DNA of 64,000 nt from an uncultured delta proteobacterium (GTDB lineage: Bacteria > Chloroflexota > Dehalococcoidia > Dehalococcoidales > BS750m-G39): NCBI GenBank assembly GCA_963739245.1, contig CAVTZP010000005.1, forward strand, positions 78,707 through 142,706, read 5' to 3'. Positions 1 through 9,490 of the stretch are shown here, piece by piece. Numbering within the stretch: position 1 is the stretch's first letter; the number at the start of each line of letters is the position of its first letter. A program made the position numbers and the translations under genes. Under the pieces are notes generated by a model, which worked only from the letters and a program-made list of their open reading frames with translations, was not told the DNA's origin and did no database searches.

Positions 1-226
1 TATGCCCGCCACGACATTGCTTCTGTTCTAGCTGATGGTGGCAGAGCTTACCTCCCAGGCGGAGCCGCTCTAGCAGCTGCGGGTTATCGAAGAACGTAAT
101 GGCTCCGCAACTCAGGCAATGCCCCATATAGCCTCTTTCCAGCTCGAAAATACGGGCTTTTGCCCCGCACGGGCAATCCAGTGAAAACTCCGTTGACCTT
201 TTCTTTGTCGACTTCTTTCTTGCCAT
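1..226 (-). CDS. Small Cys-rich (putative Zn-binding) protein of the inserted element, partial (runs off left edge)
   Basis: Not in the ORF track. Manual translation MARKKSTKKRSTEFSLDCPCGAKARIFELERGYMGHCLSCGAITFF... with CPC/CxxC motifs; GAGGA upstream; follows 235..1266 in the same orientation. Confidence 0.65.
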   Translation of the reverse strand, partial: MARKKSTKKRSTEFSLDCPCGAKARIFELERGYMGHCLSCGAITFFDNPQLLERLRLGGKLCHHQLEQKQCRGGH

Positions 227-234
227 CTCAATCC

Positions 235-1266
235 TCATGGCAACAGCTTAAGTGCGGTGCCAGATGGCTGAGCCACAGTTGCATAAGCATTCTTGTCAGC
301 CTCGACAAGGACAAGGCCACACCAGGGGCACTTATAGATACTACTCGGTACGTTGCCTGGGCGAAGGACCCAGAATAGAGCGCCGCACCACAGACAGTGG
401 TGAAAGGTTAGCTGGTCGCTGGTGCCCAGATACTCGATAAGTGATCGCAGATGCACATAGCGATGGTAAAAGCCTACCAGTTCTCCTTTCTCCGCTATCT
501 CTGTTTTTAGTTGGGATAAGACCATTTCGTGCTGGGCCCGCTCCTCCCTCAAGCGGGACAGGATGCCATCGAGATTGCGCCGGTTTTCGCCGAGGGTCTT
601 GATGTCAGTTTCAAGTGCGGCCAGATAGCCGGTAAGTTTCCCATGTTTCTTCAGTGCCTCAGCTAGCCTTTCGCGAGCATTCGTGTAGCCAGCAAACTCT
701 GCGGCCATACCAAGAGTCAGCTCAAGGCTGAAACCATGTCTTGTCACTTTCGCCTTTACTTGCCCGGCAACGGCGATCTCTGCTTCGGTAACATCAGCCT
801 TCCGGCGATATTCGGCCAGCTCTTCATCAATACGCTTCCTTTCCTTGGCTGCCTTGTTCTTGAAAGCTGCGAGCTCCTTTTCCTCCCTTTCCCAATCCTG
901 CTTCACCTTGCGCAGTTGTTCTGTGGCATACTCGGTTGCCTTTACTGCTTCTCGATATTTCTCTTCCGTTTCCTTAGCTCGGTTTTGTAGTGTTTCGAGT
1001 TCCAAGCGTTGAGCGGCAACCCTTCGCTCCAGTTTCTCATTCTCTTGCAATAGCTGATTGTGCATCTCTAGAGCTTGGCTCAAAGACACACCCTTTTCCC
1101 TTTCCAGCTTTACGAGGCCATTTACAGCTTCGAGATAACCGGAGTCTGCGAGCCGTGTCTGAAGTTCGACCAGACTTTGAAGCTGCTTTTCGCTAAATCC
1201 GGGGTTGAAGGCTCGGGCTGACCTTATAACCTCTTTTAGTTCTTCCGGTGTGAATTCGTGTGTCAT
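235..1266 (-). CDS. Coiled-coil protein with C-terminal Zn-ribbon (CLWC...CPWC)
   Basis: 343 aa, long E/K/R-rich helical region, two C-terminal CxxC pairs; ATGA overlap with upstream gene. Confidence 0.7.
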   Translation of the reverse strand: MTHEFTPEELKEVIRSARAFNPGFSEKQLQSLVELQTRLADSGYLEAVNGLVKLEREKGVSLSQALEMHNQLLQENEKLERRVAAQRLELETLQNRAKETEEKYREAVKATEYATEQLRKVKQDWEREEKELAAFKNKAAKERKRIDEELAEYRRKADVTEAEIAVAGQVKAKVTRHGFSLELTLGMAAEFAGYTNARERLAEALKKHGKLTGYLAALETDIKTLGENRRNLDGILSRLREERAQHEMVLSQLKTEIAEKGELVGFYHRYVHLRSLIEYLGTSDQLTFHHCLWCGALFWVLRPGNVPSSIYKCPWCGLVLVEADKNAYATVAQPSGTALKLLP

Positions 1267-2090
1267 CGTTGTCCTCCGTTAGCCACGTTTTGCAGGATCA
1301 TTCGTATCGCCTCCTCAAGCGTCTGGTTGGCTCTTAGATATGGCATTGCACGGTCAACCATCTCTTTAGCCTCGCTTGCCGGATATGCCATTGCTTTCAG
1401 AGCGTTGAGCAGTTGCTCGTAGGTCCATCGCTGTTCGCCAAGTGGCAGGTCCCCGGCAGTGACCATAAACTGCATACCGAGCAAAGCACCAACTATTAAA
1501 GGGGCTATACTCCTTCCCTGGGAGCCAAAATCGCTAAGCCATGCGGCCACGGATTTACGCCTTAACGTATCTGAGACTCGGCTAACAAGATCATCGGGAA
1601 GTACCACCGGCTTGAATCCGGGTACTTCCCAGGTCGTGCGACCAGCACTTCTTGCTAGCACGACAAATCGACTCAGGTCATCATCGAGAATGGCCTGGAG
1701 GAGGACAAGGGGGATAACCAGCATTTCCGGCTTCCCAATTGGACCAACTAGCGCCGCTGGATAACAACGGTCGCCGGTTTCCACTTCTCCTGCTGCCACC
1801 AGGTACATCTTGAGGTCAATTGTGATGTGTGGAGTACCCCGGGTATCGTAGCCAAGATTAGGAACGGCGATATACCACCGTGTCCCATCCCAGGTTGGAT
1901 TTTCCCGATACCTGCCTCGAATCGCGGTTGTAATATCCTTCTCAGCTTCGGAACGTTGCTTAGTGACGTCTATGGCCGACTTAAATAGGTCAGCGACAGA
2001 AGACCGCATATCATCCGTCCCAGAATCGCGAAAAGCCAAATCAGCAGCTTCTCTGAAGTCTTTTATTTGTCTACCATGTAAGACCTTCAT
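1263..2090 (-). CDS. Hypothetical protein with RuvA C-terminal (domain III)-like tail
   Basis: 275 aa; C-terminal YEQLLNALKAMAYPASEAKEMV...TLEEAIRMIL resembles RuvA_C; GAAGGTGA RBS. Confidence 0.6.
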   Translation of the reverse strand: MKVLHGRQIKDFREAADLAFRDSGTDDMRSSVADLFKSAIDVTKQRSEAEKDITTAIRGRYRENPTWDGTRWYIAVPNLGYDTRGTPHITIDLKMYLVAAGEVETGDRCYPAALVGPIGKPEMLVIPLVLLQAILDDDLSRFVVLARSAGRTTWEVPGFKPVVLPDDLVSRVSDTLRRKSVAAWLSDFGSQGRSIAPLIVGALLGMQFMVTAGDLPLGEQRWTYEQLLNALKAMAYPASEAKEMVDRAMPYLRANQTLEEAIRMILQNVANGGQR

Positions 2091-2199
2091 TCACCTTCAC
2101 GTCCCGCTTTGCCAATGGCACTGGCAACTGCACTCAATTCCTCCAAATGGTTGGTGAGCATGAGTTGTATAAACTCAGAGGTTCTCAGGGCTTCTGTCC

Positions 2200-2964
2200 C
2201 CTAACCTTAGAGAGCCAAAGAGGTTCTGGGGTATATCTGACCTGTCGCAGATTATGGAGTCGCAGCGGGAGCTTAACCGGGCAGTGTCACAGCTATCCCG
2301 GATATTGGAGCTATCGGGTAACCCTATTGCCGTGCTGGAGAATGTGGAAGAGGCTGAGGATATTGCCGTCAAACCGGGGGCGGTGTGGACTATCCCCGAG
2401 GATGCTAAAGCCTATCTCCTTGACCTGCTACAGGGTGGTGGGGTCGGGCTGCACATAGATTATATCAACCTATTATATAGAATCCTGCACGATATATCTG
2501 AATCCCCCCGGGCCGCCTTTGGTGGCACCGAGAGGGACCTATCCGGGGTAGCCCTTGAGATTGAGCTTAACCCGCTGCTGCAGAAGGTGAGGCGAAAGCG
2601 GATTATCCGGACTGCCGTCTATAACCGGAGAAACCGGATGATTCTTAACCTTCTGGAGCAGTACCACGGGGAAAGCTTCGGTGAAAACCGCTTGCGGGTA
2701 ATCTGGAGTCCGGTACTACCCCAGGATTTAAGCCGGCTAATTTCTAATGAGCAGACACTGGTTCAGAGTGGTATTCATTCCCGGCGTGGGGCTATGGAAG
2801 AGGTGGGGATTGAGGACCCGGAGAACGAGTTTAAGCGGTGGTTGGAGGAGAGGGAGACAATTCTCAAAATGAATAAGCAGCTTAACGCTAAGTCAGCTCG
2901 AGGCGGAGAGGGAGGGAGAGCTTTAGCCACCGAGGCTGGAGGCGTTGAGGAATCTCCATCATAA
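2200..2964 (+). pseudogene. Phage portal protein, 3' portion only (interrupted)
   Basis: Frame reads PNLREPKRFWGISDLSQIMESQRELN...DLSGVALEIEL...VIWSPVLPQD, portal-like; too short for a full portal; directly upstream of scaffold and capsid. Confidence 0.75.
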
Positions 2965-2975
2965 GGAGGTGAAGA

Positions 2976-3476
2976 TTGCCGGATAAGAATAATCAACCCC
3001 AAAATCCCGCCGGGGAGGAGCTGGAAAGTGCCGCGACTAGGGTCGTGGAGCTTGAGGAGCTTGTCGCCAGCAAAGAGAGGGAGCTTGCGGTCAAGGACTT
3101 GCGTATCTCTGAGCTTGAGCCAGCAGTAGCTAGTCGGGATGACCAGATTGTTGCCCTCAAGCAGTCCTTAGCTGAGCTGGGGGGGAGGTTGTCTGAGTTG
3201 GAGAGCAGGTTATCGCAGGCGGTATCAAGCTACCGGGCTCTGGTAGTCAAATCAAACCCCGCCGTGCCTGAGGAGCTGATAACCGGGGACAGCATTGAGG
3301 AGATTGACCACTCTCTAGCCAGTGCCCAGGTCCTTGTTGATAGGGTAAGGCAGGGGCTGGGGGCTGAAATCGCCGCGGCAAAAATCCCGGCGGGGGCGCC
3401 ACTACGGACGCCGCTGGACTTCTCGGCGCTGTCCCCCAAAGAAAAGATTCAATATGCAATAGGAGAAAGGAGATAA
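2976..3476 (+). CDS. Putative capsid scaffolding protein
   Basis: Coiled-coil 166 aa between portal and capsid; AGGAGGTG RBS with TTG start. Confidence 0.65.
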   Translation: MPDKNNQPQNPAGEELESAATRVVELEELVASKERELAVKDLRISELEPAVASRDDQIVALKQSLAELGGRLSELESRLSQAVSSYRALVVKSNPAVPEELITGDSIEEIDHSLASAQVLVDRVRQGLGAEIAAAKIPAGAPLRTPLDFSALSPKEKIQYAIGERR

Positions 3477-3480
3477 AAAA

Positions 3481-4401
3481 GTGGCATTAACATTGAATGA
3501 GGCAGCCAAGCTGTCAAACGATATGCTTCTGCAAGGGGTGGTGGAGACCATAGTCAGGGACTCGCCCATCCTTCAGCAACTATCCTTCATTGAGATTGTA
3601 GGCAATGTCCTGACCTATAACCAGGAAAAGACCCTGCCCAGCATAGATTTCTATGATGTCGGTGACACCTGGGCTGAGTCCACCCCCACCTTTGAGCAGA
3701 AAACGGCAAGCCTGAAGATTATGGGTGGTGATGCCGATGTTGATAACTTCCTTAAGGCGACCAGGAGCAATATCCAGGACCTGGAGGCCGCCGTGGTTGA
3801 GCTCAAGGCTAAGGCACTCAAGGATAAGTTTGAGGATACCTTTATCTACGGCGATTCCGCCGCCAGCGCCAAGCAGTTTGATGGCCTGAAGAAGCTCATT
3901 GATACCACCACCGCCAGCCCCCAGGTAATTGCTATGGGGCCAACCGGGGCTACCCTTACCCTGGCGAAGCTGGATGAGCTTATTGATGCCGTAAAGGGCG
4001 GTAAGCCCGCCCTGCTGCTGATGAGCCGGCGCTCAAGACGCAAGCTCAATGCCCTGGTCAGGGCCGCTGGTGGCATGATTGAGACCGATAGAGACAACTG
4101 GGGTAACTTTATCCAGTTGTGGGACGGCATCCCCATCGGCGTCAATGACTGGATACTGGATACCCATGTCCTTACCGATAGTGTGGAGACGGCAACCACC
4201 GGGGGCACCTGCTCCACTATCTATGCCTTCCAGATGGGCGAGGGGGCGCTATGCGGCTTGACCAGCCCCGGTCACATCACTGTTGAGCCAATCGGCTCGC
4301 TGGAGACCAAGGACGCATCACGGACCAGGATTAAGTGGTACTGCTCGCTGGCCCTGTTCAGCTCAATCAAGGCCGCCGCTTTAATCGGGGTTCAAGACTA
4401 A
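3481..4401 (+). CDS. Phage major capsid protein (HK97-fold likely)
   Basis: 306 aa, MALTLNEAAKLS...GGDADVDNFL...FIYGD...FDGL motifs typical of capsid proteins; gene order portal-scaffold-capsid. Confidence 0.85.
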   Translation: MALTLNEAAKLSNDMLLQGVVETIVRDSPILQQLSFIEIVGNVLTYNQEKTLPSIDFYDVGDTWAESTPTFEQKTASLKIMGGDADVDNFLKATRSNIQDLEAAVVELKAKALKDKFEDTFIYGDSAASAKQFDGLKKLIDTTTASPQVIAMGPTGATLTLAKLDELIDAVKGGKPALLLMSRRSRRKLNALVRAAGGMIETDRDNWGNFIQLWDGIPIGVNDWILDTHVLTDSVETATTGGTCSTIYAFQMGEGALCGLTSPGHITVEPIGSLETKDASRTRIKWYCSLALFSSIKAAALIGVQD

Positions 4402-4415
4402 AACTAGCCAATTTT

Positions 4416-4443
4416 GGGGAGCCCTTCGGCTGAAGGGCTCCCC
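4416..4443 (+). terminator. Perfect 12-bp hairpin after capsid gene (terminator or mRNA stabiliser)
   Basis: GGGGAGCCCTTC-GGCT-GAAGGGCTCCCC; no U-tract. Confidence 0.55.
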
Positions 4444-4457
4444 CGGAGGAGAGAAAA

Positions 4458-4983
4458 ATGGAAAATAAGATGGAAAATAAGGATGTAGCTCAGTGGATTT
4501 GTCGCTATCGGCTGGAGAAGAGAGAGGGCGATATCAATGCCTGTCAGTCGCCAGAGGAAAGGCTCGCCTTTTTGGAAAATATCAAGCCTTATGAGGTGAT
4601 TGAGGGCGAGGGTAACTGCCTGCTTAATACTGGCATTGATGAGATGTGGGACCTGATCGCTGGTGACTCGGCTAACCACTTTAATAATGCCAATGCCCAG
4701 ATTGGCGTTGGTGATTCCAATACTGCGGCTAATGCCACCCAGACCGATTTACAGGCAGCGACTAACAAGACCTACAAGGGTATGGAGACCGGCTATCCCA
4801 CCTCTACTTCTCAAAAGGCGACCTTTAAGGCTAGCTTCGGTGCTTCTGATGCTAACTATACCTGGAATGAGTGGGTGGTGAAGCAGGCGACCAGTGGCAA
4901 GTGTCTTAACCGGAAGGTTGACGCCTTGGGGACAAAATCAAGCTGGCACCTGGACTTTAGAGGTTAGCATTACTTTGAGCTAA
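4458..4983 (+). CDS. Virion structural protein, apparent frameshift near 4940
   Basis: NCLLNTGIDEMW..IGVGD..WNEW motifs; removing one base gives C-terminus GTKSAGTWTLEVSITLS* ending at 4983. Confidence 0.6.
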
Positions 4984-5013
4984 TAGTAAGTAGCCAAGAC
5001 ATAAGGAGAGTAA

Positions 5014-5812
5014 ATGGCGACTAAATTAGTCGGTGCTGATGATGTTGCTCAAACTGGTAATGAAGGCGCAAATTACTTTCTCCTCTGTAAGTTTACTGCT
5101 GTAGCCTCAGGGACCATGACCGAGTTTAGAGTAAAGTCAGCGGTTGCTGGTAATGTTAAATGCGCTATCTATGCTGATAACGCCGGAGAACCCGGAGCTT
5201 TAATTACTAGTATGAACACCGGGCAAGCAGTAACCGGTAGTGGCTGGGAGACGTTAACCTTCACCCCAACCTCTATAACCAATGGTGTTGCTTACTGGCT
5301 TGCCGTCTGCTTTGATACAGCAGGAGCAGTTACTTATAAAAATAGTGGTGGCGGCACACCCTATAGAACGAAAACAGCAACCTATTCCTCTTTTACTTTC
5401 CCCGACCCAGCAGGTTCAGGTTTTACTAGCTACAACAATTTCTATGACATAGAAGCAGGCTGGGAAGCAGCCACTGCCAAGACCTCATCGGATACTGGCT
5501 CTGGTGCTGATGCCTATGTCTCGCTGGAAACCGGCGAAGCTAAGACCTCATCCGATGCCGGCTCCGGTGTAGATGGCACACCAGTGCCGAGTGCGAGCTT
5601 GGCTGGCAGTGAAACCGGCTCCAGTATTGACGCCATTATTGCCCGGTTACTGGCTGCCTTTGACACTGGCGGTGGTGTTGAAGCCGCTAGTATTGAAGTT
5701 GGGGAGCTGTTCCAGGAGCTGTTTGCCAGCTGAACTGGGGCAGGGCTCCGATTCCCTTGCCGCCAAGATAGAAATGCCAACCAAGGGGGGAGGTATGAAA
5801 TTATGGACCTAA
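5014..5812 (+). CDS. Putative virion fibre/decoration protein (beta-rich N-domain plus SDxGxGxD repeats), apparent frameshift near 5730
   Basis: ORF 5014..5733 continues in the shifted frame ELGQGSDSLAAKIEMPTKGGGMKLWT* to 5812, overlapping the next start; DUF4082-like AIYADNAGEPG...YWLAV segment. Confidence 0.55.
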
Positions 5813-6396
5813 ACACAATGAGAAGTATTATCCGGCGCGACCTGAAGGATGAGGACCCGTCAAACTACCGCTGGAGCGATGATGAGCTGGATAGGCACAT
5901 CGCCCACGCGGTAAAGGAGTTCTCGGAAGCGGTGCCTCTGCCGGCAAAAGCCACCCTGCCCACCACCCCGGGCTCCAGGGTGATTGATATATCATCCCTC
6001 ACCGATAGGGTTATGGTGGAGGCGGTGGAGTATCCGGTAGATAAGTTCCCGCCCGGCTACCAGAGGTTTGCTCTCTGGGGGCATGCCCTGACCCTTTTTG
6101 GCGATGAAGTCCCCGATGGCTCTAACTGCATTGTCTATTACGGTATGCTCCATACCCTTGATACTCAGGGGTCTACCATCCCCACCAAGCACGAGGACTT
6201 GATTGCTATCGGCGCCGAGGGCTATGCCGCTGTGGAGTGGGCGAGCTATGCCATCAACAGGGTTAGCCTCGGTGGCACCACAACCCCGGGGGAGTTCCTC
6301 AACTGGGGCAATGAGAAACTAAATCAGTTTAGAAGCGAGCTAAAGAGACTGGGGAGAAGAAACCTGGTCAGAATTCGCCAGCTCTACAAGATGTAA
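5803..6396 (+). CDS. Putative head-tail adaptor/connector protein
   Basis: 197 aa, RRDLKD...YRWSDDELDRHI motif typical of adaptor proteins; position in structural cluster. Confidence 0.6.
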   Translation: MDLNTMRSIIRRDLKDEDPSNYRWSDDELDRHIAHAVKEFSEAVPLPAKATLPTTPGSRVIDISSLTDRVMVEAVEYPVDKFPPGYQRFALWGHALTLFGDEVPDGSNCIVYYGMLHTLDTQGSTIPTKHEDLIAIGAEGYAAVEWASYAINRVSLGGTTTPGEFLNWGNEKLNQFRSELKRLGRRNLVRIRQLYKM

Positions 6397-6412
6397 AGGA
6401 GGTTAAAGAAAA

Positions 6413-6562
6413 ATGATAGAACGACTGTACAAGTGGCTTTGGACTAGGATAGGTGGCCGACCCTGGACTTATATTATCCGGGATAACCAGAGGCAATATC
6501 CTCTGTTCTGGCTTCTTCTGTTTGGTGCCCTCGGCATTTTGCTCGGTCACCTGTTCTGGTGA
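6413..6562 (+). CDS. Small membrane protein (49 aa), possible holin-like
   Basis: Not in ORF track. MIERLYKWLWTRIGGRPWTYIIRDNQRQYPLFWLLLFGALGILLGHLFW*; AAGGAGGT RBS. Confidence 0.65.
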   Translation: MIERLYKWLWTRIGGRPWTYIIRDNQRQYPLFWLLLFGALGILLGHLFW

Positions 6563-6578
6563 AGTCTAAAGGAGCTAA

Positions 6579-8581
6579 ATGAGGCAGCTTAGTTCAACAT
6601 TGCTTGCCGCTCAGCAGCAGGCGACCGGTGCCCCCTATGTCAGGGTGGAGGCATCAAATAGGCACGCCGGGGTGGTCAACCTGCGGTGGGCAAGGCTTTA
6701 TACCGGCGCGGAGGATGATTACTTTCACGCTGTGGCCATGCCCGGGGATGGCTCCCTAATCAGGGTCAGGATAACACCCCCGGCTGACTCCAGGAAGCTG
6801 TATCGCCAGAGGGTGGCCAGCCCCAACCCCCAGTCCGATTTCAGCCAGTGGGCCTACACCAACCAGTATGACGTTGTTACTGTGGCTGGCTGCTGTCTCG
6901 GGGCTGAGGTCTCTATCTTCTGGATTAAGAGCGACCGGAAGGTCTACCAGCTAAAGAGCACCGACTACGGGGTTAGCTGGGGAAGCCCCCAGCTCCTTGG
7001 CTATACCCCCACCACCGCCATCAATGGCATTGCTGCCTCGTATAAGCCGAACGGCGATATTGCCCTGTTCTTTGCTGACCAGGCAACCCTCTATGTAATG
7101 AAGCGAATAGGTGGTAGCTGGGGGGATAAGGTCGCCTGGAACAAGTCAACCGGCGACCTGTCAGGTGTTGCTGCCGTTTATGGTGGCGATTGGAACCTTT
7201 TTATTACCGGGAAGGATTCTAACGGTAATTTCAAACTTTGGTCGCTGGTTTATGGTGACGGTGGGGATGTCGCTGCTGGCACCTGGTCGGAGCTGAAGGA
7301 GTTTGCCTCAGCCCCGTCAGATGGCAGCTTTGAGTACCGGGCGGCGTTTATGGATAAGCCCGATGTCTATCGCTGCTTCTTTGTTGAGAAGTTTAGCGGA
7401 ACCACGTCGTACAGCCGCCCCTTCTGGTCGCACTCAGTGTTGGATGCTAAGTTTATTGACAACCCGTGGCATGAGCCAGTACCGTTCAACCTTTCCTGCC
7501 AGTATGGCATGGCTATCGCCCACCACGGCGAGTATTGCTGGCTATCTACCCCCTATGGCGTGTGGCGGGCTAAGCTGACCCCCGAGAGCCTGGACTTGTC
7601 TGCCGACGTCCTGTCATTAAGGCAGGAGCTCACCTCAAACAGAGGTAGTCTTACTGTTGAACTCAGAAACGATGATGGCCGGTATGCGGCACCAGGACAG
7701 GGTGACCTTTCCGTCCTTGACATCGGCGGTCAGCTTGAGCTTAGCCCGGGCTATGTTACCTCTCAGGGGAGTGAGACGAGCTCAGGACTTATCTTTACCC
7801 TCAACGCCTATGAGCATACCAGCTCCGGTGGTAAGGCGAGCCTGATTCTCCATGCCTCAGACGGCTGGAGCCTGATTGAAAGCTGGAGAGCCAGGCACCA
7901 GTTCCGCTGGAATAAGCAGAGTAATGAGCTGAGCGTTAAACAGCTCCTTCAGTTTGTGCTGGCCAGGGTCGGGCTGGGCTTGAGACAAAATCCCAGTCGG
8001 CGGTGTTAACCGGCTACTACCCCGATTTCACCATCAACCCCAATAATAGCGGTGACAGCGTTATCAGCCGCCTGCTGTCCTTCGTCCCTGATACTTTATT
8101 TATTGAGGGCAACAAGGCCTACGTGGTAAACCCGCAAGCATCGGATAGCTCCGTCTATAGCTATGGTTCCTCTCATTATATTCTGGATGGCAGGTATAGA
8201 GAGGCGGCTCAGGAGCTTAACCGAGTCCAGGTTGAGGGTTATGACCCGACGCAGAGCAAGGCGATTGTGGTTGACTGTTTCGCCTGGGACCAAATAGAGC
8301 GGCTCTATGACCGGCTGAGGCAACTTGAGGATAAGAATATAGATACTGTAACTAAGGCGGAGCAGAGGGGGGAGGCTTATCTAAGACGGGCGGAGGTGGC
8401 ATCGGTTAATGGTTCCATCCTCATCCCGGTTAATTGCGGCCAGCAGCTATATGATGTTATTGACATCACCGATAGCCGGGCCGGTCTTGATGCCGCCAAG
8501 CGGCGGGTGCTCGGGCTGGCCCTGGTTTATAGTCCCAAAAGCGGGGAGTACCAGCAAAGGTTATTGCTCGGCGGGGTATAG
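6579..8581 (+). CDS. Large tail/baseplate-hub-like protein, split by apparent frameshift near 7976
   Basis: ORFs 6579..8009 and 8003..8581 join as ...ARVGLxLETKSQSAVLTGYYPDF with one added base; Asp-box-like STDYGVSW; hub-like C-terminus. Confidence 0.6.
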
Positions 8582-8594
8582 AAATTGTTTATCT

Positions 8595-8729
8595 ACCTCA
8601 CCCCCTTAATCCCCCTCTCCTTTAAAGGAGAGGGGGAGGAATAAAAAAGAGGGGGGGGCGAAGCCCCCCTCTTAAAACTACTTCCCCCTTCCCCTCTAGG
8701 GGAAGGGGGTCAGGGGGATGGGGTTACCA
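8595..8729 (-). repeat. GC-rich multi-hairpin intergenic repeat (REP/MITE-like), copy 1
   Basis: ACCTCACCCCC end, hairpins CCCCCTCTCC..GGAGAGGGGG, AAGAGGGG..CCCCTCTT and CCCCCTTCCCC..GGGGAAGGGGG. Confidence 0.85.
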
Positions 8730-8814
8730 CCTAAAGCAGGTTCCCTGAAAATCAAAGATTCTTAAGGGTGCATAAAAGCGATAGGGTTATAAGAATATTT
8801 AAGGGGAGACTGAA

Positions 8815-9027
8815 ATGAGGCTGAGGAAAGCAGTGCTGAAGGGTTTCAACTCCGGGGACTATACCGCCACCGTCCAGGTTGCTGGCAGCTATAAGGTCTA
8901 TCTGGAGGGTATTTCTGTGGCGCGGAATCTGCCCGCCGCCGAGATGGCGCTGGGCAGAAAGGTAGCGGTTATATTCTTTGACGAGAATAACGCCAAAGAC
9001 GCCGTTGTTATCGCCGTTTATACTTAA
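8815..9027 (+). CDS. Small phage-cluster protein (possible OB-fold spike-like)
   Basis: 70 aa, beta-rich, last gene of structural cluster; AAGGGGAG RBS. Confidence 0.55.
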   Translation: MRLRKAVLKGFNSGDYTATVQVAGSYKVYLEGISVARNLPAAEMALGRKVAVIFFDENNAKDAVVIAVYT

Positions 9028-9088: not shown

Positions 9089-9490
9089 CTATTGTGGTGC
9101 TTGTTCTTTGCTCACGCCCTGGGCAATATTCTTTAAGATAGTAAGGATGGCAATGAGGGCACGCTGCACATCAACCGGCTCCCGGGCAAGCACACCAGCC
9201 ACATAGGGGTCTACCATGCCCCCGGAATACTCCGACCCGGCCTCAGCCACGCCGGAAGAATGGGAAGATAGATACCCGGCTAAGGTAAACAGCCCATCCT
9301 CACCAATGCCCAGAGGCTTGGCGATTCTCCGCAGAACGCGGGCCGAAGGATAGCGCTCCCCCCTCTCTATCCGCCCGAGATGGGACGGGGATACCCCTGA
9401 CATGGTAGCCAGCTCCTGGAGTGTCAGTGGTATGGTAACCCTCTGCCGCCTAATGATTTCGCCTAAATTGTTACTTCTTCCGTCAAACAT
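9089..9490 (-). CDS. Xre-family HTH transcriptional regulator (paralog of 26170..26562)
   Basis: LTLQELATMSGVSPSHLGRIERGER HTH. Confidence 0.9.
   Translation of the reverse strand: MFDGRSNNLGEIIRRQRVTIPLTLQELATMSGVSPSHLGRIERGERYPSARVLRRIAKPLGIGEDGLFTLAGYLSSHSSGVAEAGSEYSGGMVDPYVAGVLAREPVDVQRALIAILTILKNIAQGVSKEQAPQ

Follow-up and report, generated by a model that had tools for sequence, protein, structure and literature searches.

A 46-kb island with its own large serine recombinase splits the portal gene of a gene transfer agent-like cluster in a Dehalococcoidia genome

Why does a phage-type portal gene begin in the middle of its own protein family? The window analysed here, a stretch of 64,000 nucleotides of contig CAVTZP010000005.1 (contig coordinates are prefixed C5; window position 2201 is C5:80907), belongs to a metagenome-assembled draft genome of 9 contigs that is 93.7% complete. 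Near its left end lies a portal frame that matches phrog_64 (portal, 1.7e-25) and the Pfam family SPP1_portal (55 bits). Half of the portal is missing, because the SPP1_portal match covers only positions 202-413 of the 416 in the profile. The open frame spans 2173-2964 and contains ...LLSPNLREPKRFWGISDL...; the annotated portal ATG at 2254 is an internal codon. An earlier note on this DNA had proposed that an integrated site-specific element splits the gene, and the marks to which it pointed are all present: a TAA at 2170-2172, upstream of the 3' part; a palindrome, TGAGTT-GTATA-AACTCA, at 2161-2177; two copies of AGAGGTTCT, at 2177-2185 and 2219-2227; and a loss of portal character near 2200. 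The last of these can be placed closely, as the aligned intact portals of relatives run to window 2200-2202 and diverge leftward from there. The junction between portal and non-portal sequence is highly significant, far beyond chance. By plain arithmetic, about 16 palindromes with 6-bp arms are expected per 64 kb for each spacer length, so the palindrome is at chance level. The left copy of AGAGGTTCT belongs to the attP arm described below. The right copy is probably a coincidence, because it is portal coding sequence (K-R-F-W-G) oriented wrongly for a half-site; it is present in 5 of the 10 aligned relatives.

The other half of the gene exists, and the proposed split is borne out. It sits 46 kb farther upstream, at C5:34135-34769 and on the same strand, and a large serine recombinase gene adjoins it (Table 1). 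The earlier note had expected a 5' portal half, a recombinase and a terminase to the left of the window; the terminase is not inside the element and belongs instead to the interrupted cluster. The 5' half covers profile positions 19-194, against 202-413 for the 3' half. Each half is complete and has no stop codon within it, the two join exactly to the nucleotide, and the joined protein reads Y-P-N without a gap. They abut with neither gap nor overlap in 10/10 extended relative loci and, at the nucleotide level, in all 10 loci with both flanks matched, a count that leaves out L015, where the right flank alone matched. The notion of a naturally short portal fails, as homologous portals have 450-520 aa. 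Moreover, the portal is intact in all three genomes of the same genus, and none of the 10 aligned relatives carries the island.

Table 1. Coordinates of the split portal gene, the island features and the interrupted cluster (window positions unless prefixed C5).
Feature	Position	Strand	Basis or remark
Divergent large serine recombinase, 709 aa	C5:34760-36889	-	resolvase-type motifs, Pfam, family profile
Island gene, 97-aa ORF, begins 55 bases before the window (C5:78651-78944)	2..238	-	no family match
Island gene, 343-aa coiled-coil protein with zinc-ribbon-like C-terminal end	235..1266	-	weak matches below cut-offs
Last island gene, 275 aa, transcribed away from the junction	1263..2090	-	ORF; no family match
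Palindrome TGAGTT-GTATA-AACTCA	2161..2177		right arm alone overlaps outer end of attP arm
attR element-side (P) arm, with AGGTTCT at 2179-2185	2170..2199		inverted partner C5:34770-34799
attR crossover core CC, island end	2200..2201		matching attL core C5:34768-34769
Portal gene, 3' part, Pro212 to stop	2200..2964	+	SPP1_portal and phrog_64 matches
Scaffold-like coiled-coil protein, 166 aa	2976..3476	+	between portal and capsid; coiled-coil matches below cut-off; conserved
Major capsid protein, epsilon15 gp7 / SU10-like	3481..4401	+	NCBIfam, PHROG, Pfam SU10_MCP
Two cluster genes, 169 aa (phrog_23653, annotated as unknown function) and 239 aa (variable)	4458..5733	+	PHROG, relatives
Head-tail adaptor, SU10 adaptor-like	5803..6396	+	Pfam SU10_adaptor, 28.2 bits (cut-off 27)
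Distal cluster genes, 476, 192 and 70 aa	6579..9027	+	conserved in relatives
XRE-type repressor-like gene, right cluster edge	9089..9490	-	PHROG transcription-regulator matches

Public metagenomes hold both the empty and the occupied site. A contig from run X1 carries an intact portal with 0 differences from the window over 1630 nt; in that run the final 2 kb of the island (window 201-2198) are lacking, and the 46 kb are missing together as a single unit, in a comparison in which uncovered stretches do not count as absence. Contigs in runs X5 and X6 span attR, and the empty portal site is present in contigs of X1, X5 and X6. The attL junction was seen independently in L079, together with an 86%-identical recombinase. 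Since a matching strain without the island exists, the split in the portal is genuine and recent, and it could in principle be reversed. As the earlier note expected, conservative excision would restore the frame exactly, and the rebuilt sequence is the one seen in the X1 contig. The excised circle itself did not turn up. We found no circle (attP) junction among the loose ends listed from the metagenome contigs, which as assemblies drop rare variants, and a search for the circle arrangement in relative loci with the island's last 2.2 kb gave one weak, unrelated match only. Empty and occupied forms within one metagenome can be different strains rather than products of excision. Other ways of separating two portal pieces fit poorly. 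A chromosomal inversion or translocation is contradicted by the shared strand of the halves and by the 46 kb that is missing as one unit in X1, a phage's own attP within the portal would place the 3' half before the 5' half, and paralogous remnants are contradicted by the exact abutment of the halves in relatives.

The island ends have the structure used by large serine recombinases, with an attP that is an imperfect inverted repeat around a 2-bp core and an attB that is different. Matches occur at 21 of the 30 arm positions of the attP-like repeat, a value equalled by 0 of 20,000 random 30-mer pairs, and AGGTTCT stands 14 nt from the core at both ends. The B arms agree at 11/30 positions, which is chance level. 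There are no long direct repeats; the only sequence common to the two island ends is a run of Cs, four in attL and four in attR, within which the exact position of the core is ambiguous. The empty site of relatives reads ATCTACCC(T/C)AACC and has three or four Cs (5/10 each), because the third base of the proline codon varies; the X1 contig carries the 3-C form.

The recombinase is structurally tied to the junction, as its stop codon lies across attL and its last codons cross from island into portal sequence. It has a resolvase-type catalytic domain with a serine nucleophile, recognisable by the motifs YGRVSS and SRLSRD, and R35, S37, R140 and R143 are invariant in 26 homologues. The protein scores 24.2 bits against Pfam Resolvase (cut-off 23.3) and passes marginally against Pfam Recombinase (PF07508; 21.2 bits, cut-off 21.1, residues 277-379), a domain listed for many of its homologues in precomputed Pfam annotation. 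Pfam Zn_ribbon_recom gives no match, and C375, H378, C395 and C407 are invariant in the homologues; a coiled-coil stretch follows this region, through which the XisF model aligns. A profile of the recombinase family finds its best solved-structure match in the catalytic domain of the SPbeta recombinase YokA/SprA (8e-9). XisF is the sole NCBIfam match and extends over positions 42-463 of 465, and as it reaches 33 bits against a cut-off of 375 we judge from the score that the protein is not an orthologue of XisF. In an additional C-terminal extension of about 200 aa, Myb-like repeats score weakly and stay below the cut-off (19.2 bits). Among the island genes we recognised no directionality factor, relaxase or replication initiator; a conserved 137-aa AbrB/MazE-like gene and an upstream 265-aa gene are candidate directionality factors.

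The island measures 46,137 bp (C5:34771-80907) and contains the recombinase module, small genes without assigned function, an IS110 transposase, an ABC-transporter operon and a glycan-synthesis cluster. Relatives also have the operon of ABC-transporter and dehydrogenase genes, at 76-86% DNA identity, which makes the island a mosaic, one that may have taken up chromosomal genes. The 275-aa protein has homologues at 40-46% identity in 4/100 relatives, with one further weak match at 27%, and its gene would sit just downstream of the recombinase gene in an excised circle. A homologue of the 343-aa gene follows the 275-aa gene in L034 and L137; the 343-aa protein itself has coiled-coil and SMC-like matches only, all below cut-off. 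We considered whether the island is a prophage, and found no capsid, portal, tail or terminase gene by Pfam in 49 ORFs (47 together with the 275-aa and 343-aa genes, C5:53728-54486 being left out) or by PHROGs in the 21 of these without a firm family. An integrative conjugative element was likewise rejected, as no relaxase, coupling protein or type IV secretion gene was found by Pfam (E<=1e-5) or by NCBIfam in 15 island proteins. A PADLOC search of 25 island and cluster proteins identified no defence system, and returned only a match resembling an HTH 'control protein' and sub-threshold SMC-like matches.

The interrupted genes form a phage-derived head-and-packaging cluster, long retained in Dehalococcoidia, in the order TerS, split TerL, portal, scaffold, capsid protein and adaptor, with the large terminase in two reading frames. 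The capsid protein is assigned firmly (NCBIfam MCP_gp7_epsi_15, 201.9 bits, cut-off 75; phrog_212, 1.3e-69). The 476-aa distal protein may be tail-related, for which an atlas gives a weak 'phage tail protein' lead; searches of PDB sequences with this protein and with the 274-aa cluster protein gave nothing usable. The cluster is syntenic across the order, with the same host genes in the same order flanking 7/10 loci, and integrases are absent from the flanks examined; the XRE-type repressor-like gene is also next to the cluster in L052 and L060. Of the 101 genomes of the order 66 have the portal, mostly as a single copy, and 172/301 genomes of the class have the capsid protein (a count that includes G338, flagged as unpublished). 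For 11 cluster genes the median dN/dS lies at 0.06-0.20, compared with 0.10-0.24 for three flanking host genes, with dS near saturation except in the comparison with the same-genus relative, where dN/dS ranges from 0.06 to 0.31. Three of the 10 relative loci are without terminase genes within 11-12 kb upstream of the portal, and three relatives have internal deletions in the cluster; in the source genome the rest of the cluster is intact. A structural cluster at a fixed locus, inherited vertically and under purifying selection, is what is looked for in a gene transfer agent (GTA). Because of its synteny across the order, its presence in 172/301 class genomes and the purifying selection, the cluster, known here from its genes, looks GTA-like rather than like an ordinary prophage.

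Taken together, we consider it probable, at roughly 85%, that the island was integrated by its own large serine recombinase, through conservative site-specific recombination, into the Pro212 codon of the portal gene of this GTA-like cluster. Recombinase dimers would bind attP, the imperfect inverted repeat at the extreme 3' end of the recombinase gene, and also attB, formed by the portal codons F-V/I-I-Y-P-N-L. Cleavage at the central CC and strand exchange would then yield attL, ending the portal 5' half, and attR at window 2200-2201. Carriers would make no portal and hence no particles. Excision, which would need a directionality factor, would restore the portal gene exactly. The portal may serve as the site because it is single-copy, strongly conserved and, presumably, dispensable for growth.

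The serine recombinase family in question comprises at least 180 divergent members, and the relatives of the island's enzyme show that the site is not used by one element alone. Nine more contigs have a related recombinase at this portal site, with occupancy taken from tblastn-derived coordinates, and at least three recombinase lineages use it. In 6 contigs the cut gene is the terminase ATPase gene of the same cluster, so that two essential packaging genes are targets. Outside the cluster, putative targets are ArdC-like genes (10), clamp-like genes (6-8) and subtilase genes (4); the ArdC-like, subtilase and other genes beside related recombinases were called targets from domain ends only. The family was found in 3/101 genomes of the order and 3/301 of the class. 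Among IMG/VR viral contigs the recombinase profile produced 40 pattern matches but no relative.

This architecture, precise and frame-restoring, would also suit a programmed switch, in which a domesticated element is excised under regulation in a subpopulation, rebuilds the portal and licenses particle production. SprA and XisF, to which the recombinase is related, act in exactly such switches; empty and occupied forms occur together in runs X5 and X6, the same site has been reused by at least three recombinase lineages, and the remaining cluster is intact in the source genome. We nevertheless regard a switch as unlikely. The element is not conserved at the site, since all three same-genus genomes and the other aligned relatives have intact portals, and the recombinase family was found only in the few genomes counted above. 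Genes of other kinds (subtilase, ArdC-like and others) appear to be cut by the family as well, the lack of window 201-2198 in X1 fits a strain difference, and the loose ends listed include no excised circle.

It is also conceivable that the island exploits or antagonises the particle, excision restoring the portal so that the freed circle is packaged as a capsid hitch-hiker, or its insertion blocking a putative particle-linked lysis of the carrier. The cutting of the terminase ATPase gene by related recombinases would be in keeping with such a habit, as would an island in which no transfer genes of its own were recognised. However, neither a packaging signal nor a small-terminase mimic was found, 46 kb may be too much for the head of a GTA-like particle, and putative targets lie outside the cluster at least as often, all of which makes this explanation quite improbable. 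Very little speaks for an artefact or for decay, that is, for a chimeric contig or a portal remnant truncated by deletion. The genome is a metagenome-assembled draft and three relatives do have real deletions in the cluster, but both junctions recur in independent assemblies, and remnants would hardly comprise two complete, stop-free halves that join to the nucleotide. Site-specific integration by the island's own recombinase thus remains our preferred explanation.

Elements that split a gene and leave it again by recombination are textbook cases in sporulation and heterocyst genes. SPbeta and skin interrupt sporulation genes, are fixed in their lineages and leave at a set stage of development, in a cell that is terminal; the intervening fdxN element of heterocysts is excised by the large serine recombinase XisF. 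The XisF model matches the island recombinase along nearly its whole length, although host, target and programme are all different. In Bacillus and Clostridioides, SPbeta with SprA in spsM and skin with SpoIVCA in sigK are reported as elements of large serine recombinases that split a gene which excision rebuilds (PMC4191935, PMC5025042). The island resembles them in splitting a coding gene that conservative excision would restore exactly. Unlike them, it targets a phage-derived portal and not a sporulation gene, brings a cargo of metabolic and glycan genes with no phage structural gene among them, and has a recombinase with a C-terminal extension and a stop codon across attL. It is also sporadic, with intact portals in same-genus genomes, whereas the skin and nifD elements are vertically fixed.

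Within the class, genomic islands of Dehalococcoides are reported to integrate at the tmRNA gene ssrA (PMC3146451). They too are site-specific cargo islands in a small Dehalococcoidia genome, but the present island lies inside the portal reading frame. IME1 of Dehalococcoides reportedly uses a tyrosine recombinase, lies beside tRNA genes, measures 21-28 kb, is found also as circles and is proposed to be a filamentous virus (bioRxiv 10.64898/2026.09.15.751708). IME1 and the island are both integrative elements of Dehalococcoidia, but they are unrelated. The cluster, for its part, shares with GTAs such as RcGTA a compact form, a fixed place, vertical inheritance, purifying selection and integrase-free flanks (where examined); unlike RcGTA it has a capsid protein of the epsilon15/SU10 type and a large terminase in two frames, and it is known from genes alone.

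In the literature searched we found no description of a large serine recombinase element splitting a phage-type portal in a vertically inherited, selected capsid cluster, and no report of a GTA in Dehalococcoidia. The cluster is a candidate GTA in a class with organohalide-respiring members. In Dehalococcoides, catabolic islands are documented to move horizontally (PMC3146451). If the portal is merely a safe landing site, the locus is an ordinary but clean case of site-specific island integration. The family would in addition offer 180 or more divergent serine recombinases whose natural attB/attP pairs are defined and lie in conserved genes, and the locus a natural on/off polymorphism of the portal that is traceable in metagenomes. 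It is tempting to speculate that a domesticated GTA-like particle is class-wide in Dehalococcoidia, with islands of this kind as its reversible on/off cassettes or its parasites; we hold this to be doubtful, though worth stating. Were it true, three or more recombinase lineages whose attP arms differ would have converged on, or retained, the same portal dinucleotide, and within a population a cell would either carry an island or produce particles, the two states being mutually exclusive.

A conserved portal gene carries, at Pro212, a precise, recombinase-associated and recently mobile 46-kb insertion, and the earlier note was right to read the gene as split by an integrated element. The stop codon, open frame, palindrome and repeated motif on which that reading drew are all present in the window sequence. 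The window's portal frame matches Pfam SPP1_portal over profile positions 202-413 of 416 only (55 bits) and PHROG portal family 64 over 283-512 of 547 only, and therefore represents the back half of a portal gene. When the organism's own genome (1.35 Mb in 9 contigs, the window being C5:78707-142706) was searched with the portal family, a second piece emerged upstream at C5:34252-34770, on the same strand and covering profile positions 39-194. The reading frame that breaks off there picks up again in the window with P-NLREPKRFWG.

Comparison with relatives supports two halves of one gene. The two halves are adjacent in all ten relatives (loci of 16-20 kb), with the expected 16-17 codons between both tblastn matches. 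At the nucleotide level we compared 11 relative loci, ten of which had both flanks matched by blastn (L015, matched on its right flank only, was excluded), and each of the ten carries an uninterrupted site reading ...ATCTACCC(T/C)AACCT.... Because the relatives' open frames at the portal match are mostly 450-520 aa, homologous portals are not naturally short. The 5' half that the earlier note proposed to look for exists upstream, and halves that are contiguous elsewhere are separated here by the insert; neither condition named in that note as refuting its reading, a missing 5' half or naturally short homologues, therefore holds.

Coordinates of the principal features (C5, contig CAVTZP010000005.1 in its own numbering)
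Feature	Coordinates	Length	Remarks
Terminase ATPase frame	C5:29499-30323		26 nt from nuclease frame, different frame
Terminase nuclease frame	C5:30350-30859		
Phage-derived cluster	C5:29107-30859 and window 2200-9027		relatives' loci L047-L056
SocA/Panacea-domain gene and 144-aa gene	C5:31120-32214		variable terminase-portal stretch
Secreted TIG/Ig-domain proteins	C5:32637-33626		opposite strand, between terminase and portal genes
Portal 5' half frame	C5:34135-34794	219 aa	ends ...NPYGFIPFVIYP, then seven foreign codons (DRMLQNL) and stop
Large serine recombinase frame	C5:36979-34760	739 codons	converges on portal 5' half
Island	C5:34771-80907	46,137 bp	right end at window 2201
Internal island repeat	C5:50138-50423 and C5:51070-51381	about 300 bp	82% identity
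IS110 transposase	C5:52121-53335		island cargo
Island dnaN-like gene	C5:76196-77207	98 aa + 245 aa	left of window, two overlapping frames
Palindrome TGAGTT-GTATA-AACTCA	window 2161-2177		right arm alone overlaps attP arm
TAA stop	window 2170-2172		upstream of portal-like frame
Open frame with portal 3' part	window 2173-2964		reads ...LLSPNLREPKRFWGISDL...
AGAGGTTCT	window 2177-2185 and 2219-2227		two copies
Nested-element candidate	L082:8254-9366		downstream of recombinase

The ends of the island resemble the products of site-specific recombination. The left end (attL) reads ...ATCTACCCC then GACAGG..., the right end (attR) ...TCTGTCCCC then TAACC..., and the empty site ATCTAC-CC-TAACC, which is consistent with conservative exchange at a CC core whose exact place within the C run is ambiguous. 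Oriented towards the core, the element-side arms match at 21 of the inner 30 positions, a level never reached in 20,000 random 30-mer pairs drawn from the contig, and both carry AGGTTCT 14 nt from the core; the portal-side arms agree at 11 of 30, no better than chance (P ~0.11). The junction motifs that had drawn attention to the site fared unevenly. The left copy of AGAGGTTCT is part of the half-site of attP, the site in the circular form. The right copy is portal coding sequence (K-R-F-W-G), occurs in five of ten relatives and has the wrong orientation for a half-site, and by our own arithmetic chance alone would yield about 16 palindromes with 6-bp arms in 64 kb at any given spacer length.

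The recombinase that the earlier note expected to the left of the window lies beside the portal 5' half. Its motifs (YGRVSS and SRLSRD) and Pfam matches just above the cut-offs (Resolvase, 24.2 bits against 23.3; Recombinase, 21.2 against 21.1) identify the predicted product as a divergent large serine recombinase (LSR), probably of 709 aa if it starts at the methionine used by its database twin. R35, S37, R140, R143 and the set C375/H378/C395/C407 are invariant among 26 aligned homologues, and the family profile matches the SPbeta recombinase YokA/SprA at 8e-9. The sole NCBIfam match is to XisF (positions 42-463 of 465, 33 bits against a cut-off of 375), and the Pfam zinc-ribbon family was not detected in the protein. 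A C-terminal extension of about 200 aa has a weak Myb-like match (19.2 bits, below cut-off). The last three codons, including the stop, cross attL into portal DNA, and in related loci the recombinase 3' end likewise overlaps the junction. Many loci have an AbrB/MazE-like 137-aa gene, often also a 265-aa gene, upstream of the recombinase.

The gene content of the insert points to a cargo island rather than a prophage, because no capsid, tail or terminase gene, nor any relaxase or secretion gene, was recognised in the island ORFs scanned (all but C5:53728-54486). Besides the recombinase module it encodes a methyltransferase, two short-chain dehydrogenases, a 504-aa protein of unknown function, an IS110 transposase and a branched-chain-type ABC transporter of five genes together with a LysR regulator. 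Some 20 kb hold sugar-nucleotide, methyltransferase, glycosyltransferase, flippase and AglB/STT3-like genes, and roughly 7 kb hold small unknown genes on the minus strand, among them a dnaN-like gene and, within the window, genes of 97, 343 and 275 aa. Relatives share the transporter and dehydrogenase segment with 76-86% identity at the DNA level; the glycan segment is all but confined to this genome. An internal repeat beside the IS110-family transposase hints at a mosaic island built stepwise. The island's dnaN-like gene is probably frameshifted here; in relatives it is a single open frame of about 400-428 aa, often in two or three copies per genome, and in eight other contigs it is itself a target of related recombinases.

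Logan contigs from four public metagenome runs provided an independent check of the junctions. In run X1, a contig of 2361 nt (depth 14.2) is identical to window 2199-3828, with 0 differences, and extends to the left by 30 letters that match exactly where the portal 5' half of this genome ends, so that the contig holds an intact portal; window 201-2198 is without cover there. Gain or loss of the island is therefore very recent, in a lineage that cannot be told from this one over 1.6 kb. Occupied and empty states co-occur in two further studies, in contigs that would read the same under excision within a clone and under coexistence of strains: X5 has a contig across attR (window 1348-2228, 16 differences) and a second that enters from a slightly divergent intact portal, and X6 a contig across attR (window 2019-2228, depth 141) together with a loose end that comes from an intact portal. 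Of the two kinds of sequence that the earlier note had proposed to look for, the empty site was seen; the circle junction was found neither among the loose ends listed in the Logan contigs nor among the recombinase-bearing and relative loci searched.

The LSR family is rare in binned genomes: it occurs in 3 of 101 genomes of the order and 3 of 301 of the class, with a full-length copy in this genome only. It is common in raw assemblies (137 protein-collection clusters, mostly on contigs of 2-5 kb that, where named, carry Dehalococcoidia or Chloroflexota names). GTDB genomes yielded 24 loci and metagenome contigs 180 relatives; IMG/VR yielded none. Targets were surveyed by tblastn with this genome's proteins at 104 loci (the 24 GTDB loci and 80 of the 180 metagenome relatives). 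Directly past the recombinase stop lies the portal 5' part in nine (L037, L079, L080, L090, L093-L096, L158), a dnaN-like clamp gene with a single cut position in eight, and in six the terminase ATPase gene that belongs to the portal's own cluster (cut at residue 157 in three and about residue 72-80 in two, with the other side of the cut in one). When the 67 downstream stretches that reach 150 nt or more (from 66 loci and this genome) were clustered, they gave groups for an ArdC-N-domain gene (10), portal (8), clamp (6), terminase (4), subtilase (4) and one unnamed group (4), the remainder being four pairs and 23 singletons, some beside ordinary cellular genes. The family as a whole has many target genes, among which those of mobile-element and phage type are enriched. 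The portal junction is identically placed in all nine other cases, at the F-V/I-I-Y/F-P codons. A FastTree phylogeny of 83 recombinases, midpoint-rooted and without bootstrap, groups this genome's LSR with L079 and L080; on it the portal label changes four times, at least three of the changes forced by well-supported branches. The element-side sequence at the portal site is of at least three types. Several LSR lineages therefore share the portal site as a recurrent point of integration.

Other members of the family abut genes that look truncated: they stop just past an ArdC N-terminal domain (L034, L043, L120, L145) or past the first ~90 positions of a subtilase domain (L112, L133), or start at position 640 of an AcrB-type transporter (L121). 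This suggests that the family usually integrates by splitting a gene. In one locus (L082) the recombinase is followed by a fragment of another serine recombinase gene and then a reversed AbrB/MazE-like gene, which may be one element inserted in another.

The interrupted cluster runs from a TerS-like protein (125 aa), terminase ATPase (274 aa) and terminase nuclease (169 aa), through a variable stretch with opposite-strand TIG-domain surface proteins and a 91-aa HTH protein, to portal, scaffold and capsid protein, followed by proteins of 169 and 239 aa, an adaptor, and proteins of 476, 192 and 70 aa. This order is repeated among relatives' loci. The same host genes (CT398-like zinc-ribbon protein, S41 peptidase, radical-SAM enzyme) adjoin TerS in 7 of 10 loci; in the remaining three, no terminase gene lies within 11-12 kb upstream of the portal. 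The capsid protein is firmly identified by its match to MCP_gp7_epsi_15 (201.9 bits, cut-off 75). TerS matches PHROG 1889 (1e-8), with an NCBIfam TerS match below cut-off, and the nuclease matches Terminase_6C in Pfam (23.0 bits, cut-off 22.6); the ATPase assignment is a lead whose one basis is a language-model similarity of 0.97-0.99 to terminase clusters. Two frames encode the large terminase, a split that looks conserved rather than recent because the parts also match as separate pieces in all the extended relative loci that hold them (7 of 10) and in the complete genome G038. In the variable stretch, the SocA/Panacea-domain gene and its 144-aa partner are 97% and 87% identical to those of an other-family genome (L059, G060), far exceeding neighbouring genes, which suggests an antitoxin-type module recently transferred horizontally. 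The TIG/Ig-domain genes there and in relatives' loci number from one to four or more tandem divergent copies, varying by genome; their products may be surface proteins of the host or related to the particle.

The portal 3' half is matched in 66 of 101 genomes of the order, this one included (34 of 48 of high quality), mostly at 62-91% identity and nearly always once per genome. Across the class, 172 of the 301 sampled genomes have the capsid protein, usually once (134 of 223 of high quality), a count that includes G338, flagged unpublished. Cluster proteins are conserved equally to or above flanking host proteins; against one other-family genome, identity is 83% for the terminase ATPase and 81% for the capsid protein, compared with 45% and 53% for two host neighbours. 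Pairwise dN/dS has medians of 0.06-0.20 in 11 cluster genes and 0.10-0.24 in three host neighbours, with dS near saturation except against the same-genus genome, where dN/dS is 0.06-0.31. Order-wide synteny, shared host flanks and purifying selection led us to reject an ordinary prophage. We read the cluster as vertically inherited, selected and phage-derived, a putative particle cluster and a candidate gene transfer agent (GTA). Three relatives, one a complete single-contig genome, have internal deletions that look in-frame and take out at least the capsid gene: a fusion of the portal and 476-aa genes (L057/L058, G038), portal followed by the end of the 192-aa gene (L060, G078), and loss of scaffold and capsid genes (L061, G056). 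The cluster is therefore being lost in some lineages, which counts against a uniform function. No earlier report of such a GTA-like cluster in Dehalococcoidia was found in the literature searched. IME1 elements use a tyrosine recombinase and are unrelated to the island (bioRxiv 10.64898/2026.09.15.751708).

By analogy with established LSRs, recombinase dimers would bind attP and the empty site (attB), make a 2-bp staggered cut at the core, rotate their subunits and religate the ends. Carriers would be without a functional portal, and the particle therefore could not be assembled or filled. Every other cluster gene of this genome is full-length, so excision would restore the system at once. LSR integration requires the recombinase alone and excision a directionality factor; none was identified for this LSR. 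Two things argue against a fixed developmental switch at the portal: the island is sporadic, occurring in no same-genus relative, and the LSR family has a wide range of other targets. A role as switch or parasite draws some support from the recurrent hits on two packaging genes, portal and terminase ATPase, and from populations that contain both occupied and empty states; we nevertheless consider it unlikely. The plainest reading of the site choice is that a single-copy, highly conserved and non-essential gene makes a good attB.

The most unexpected result is that the interrupted gene is part of a class-wide, selected, GTA-like cluster that is repeatedly struck by serine-recombinase islands.
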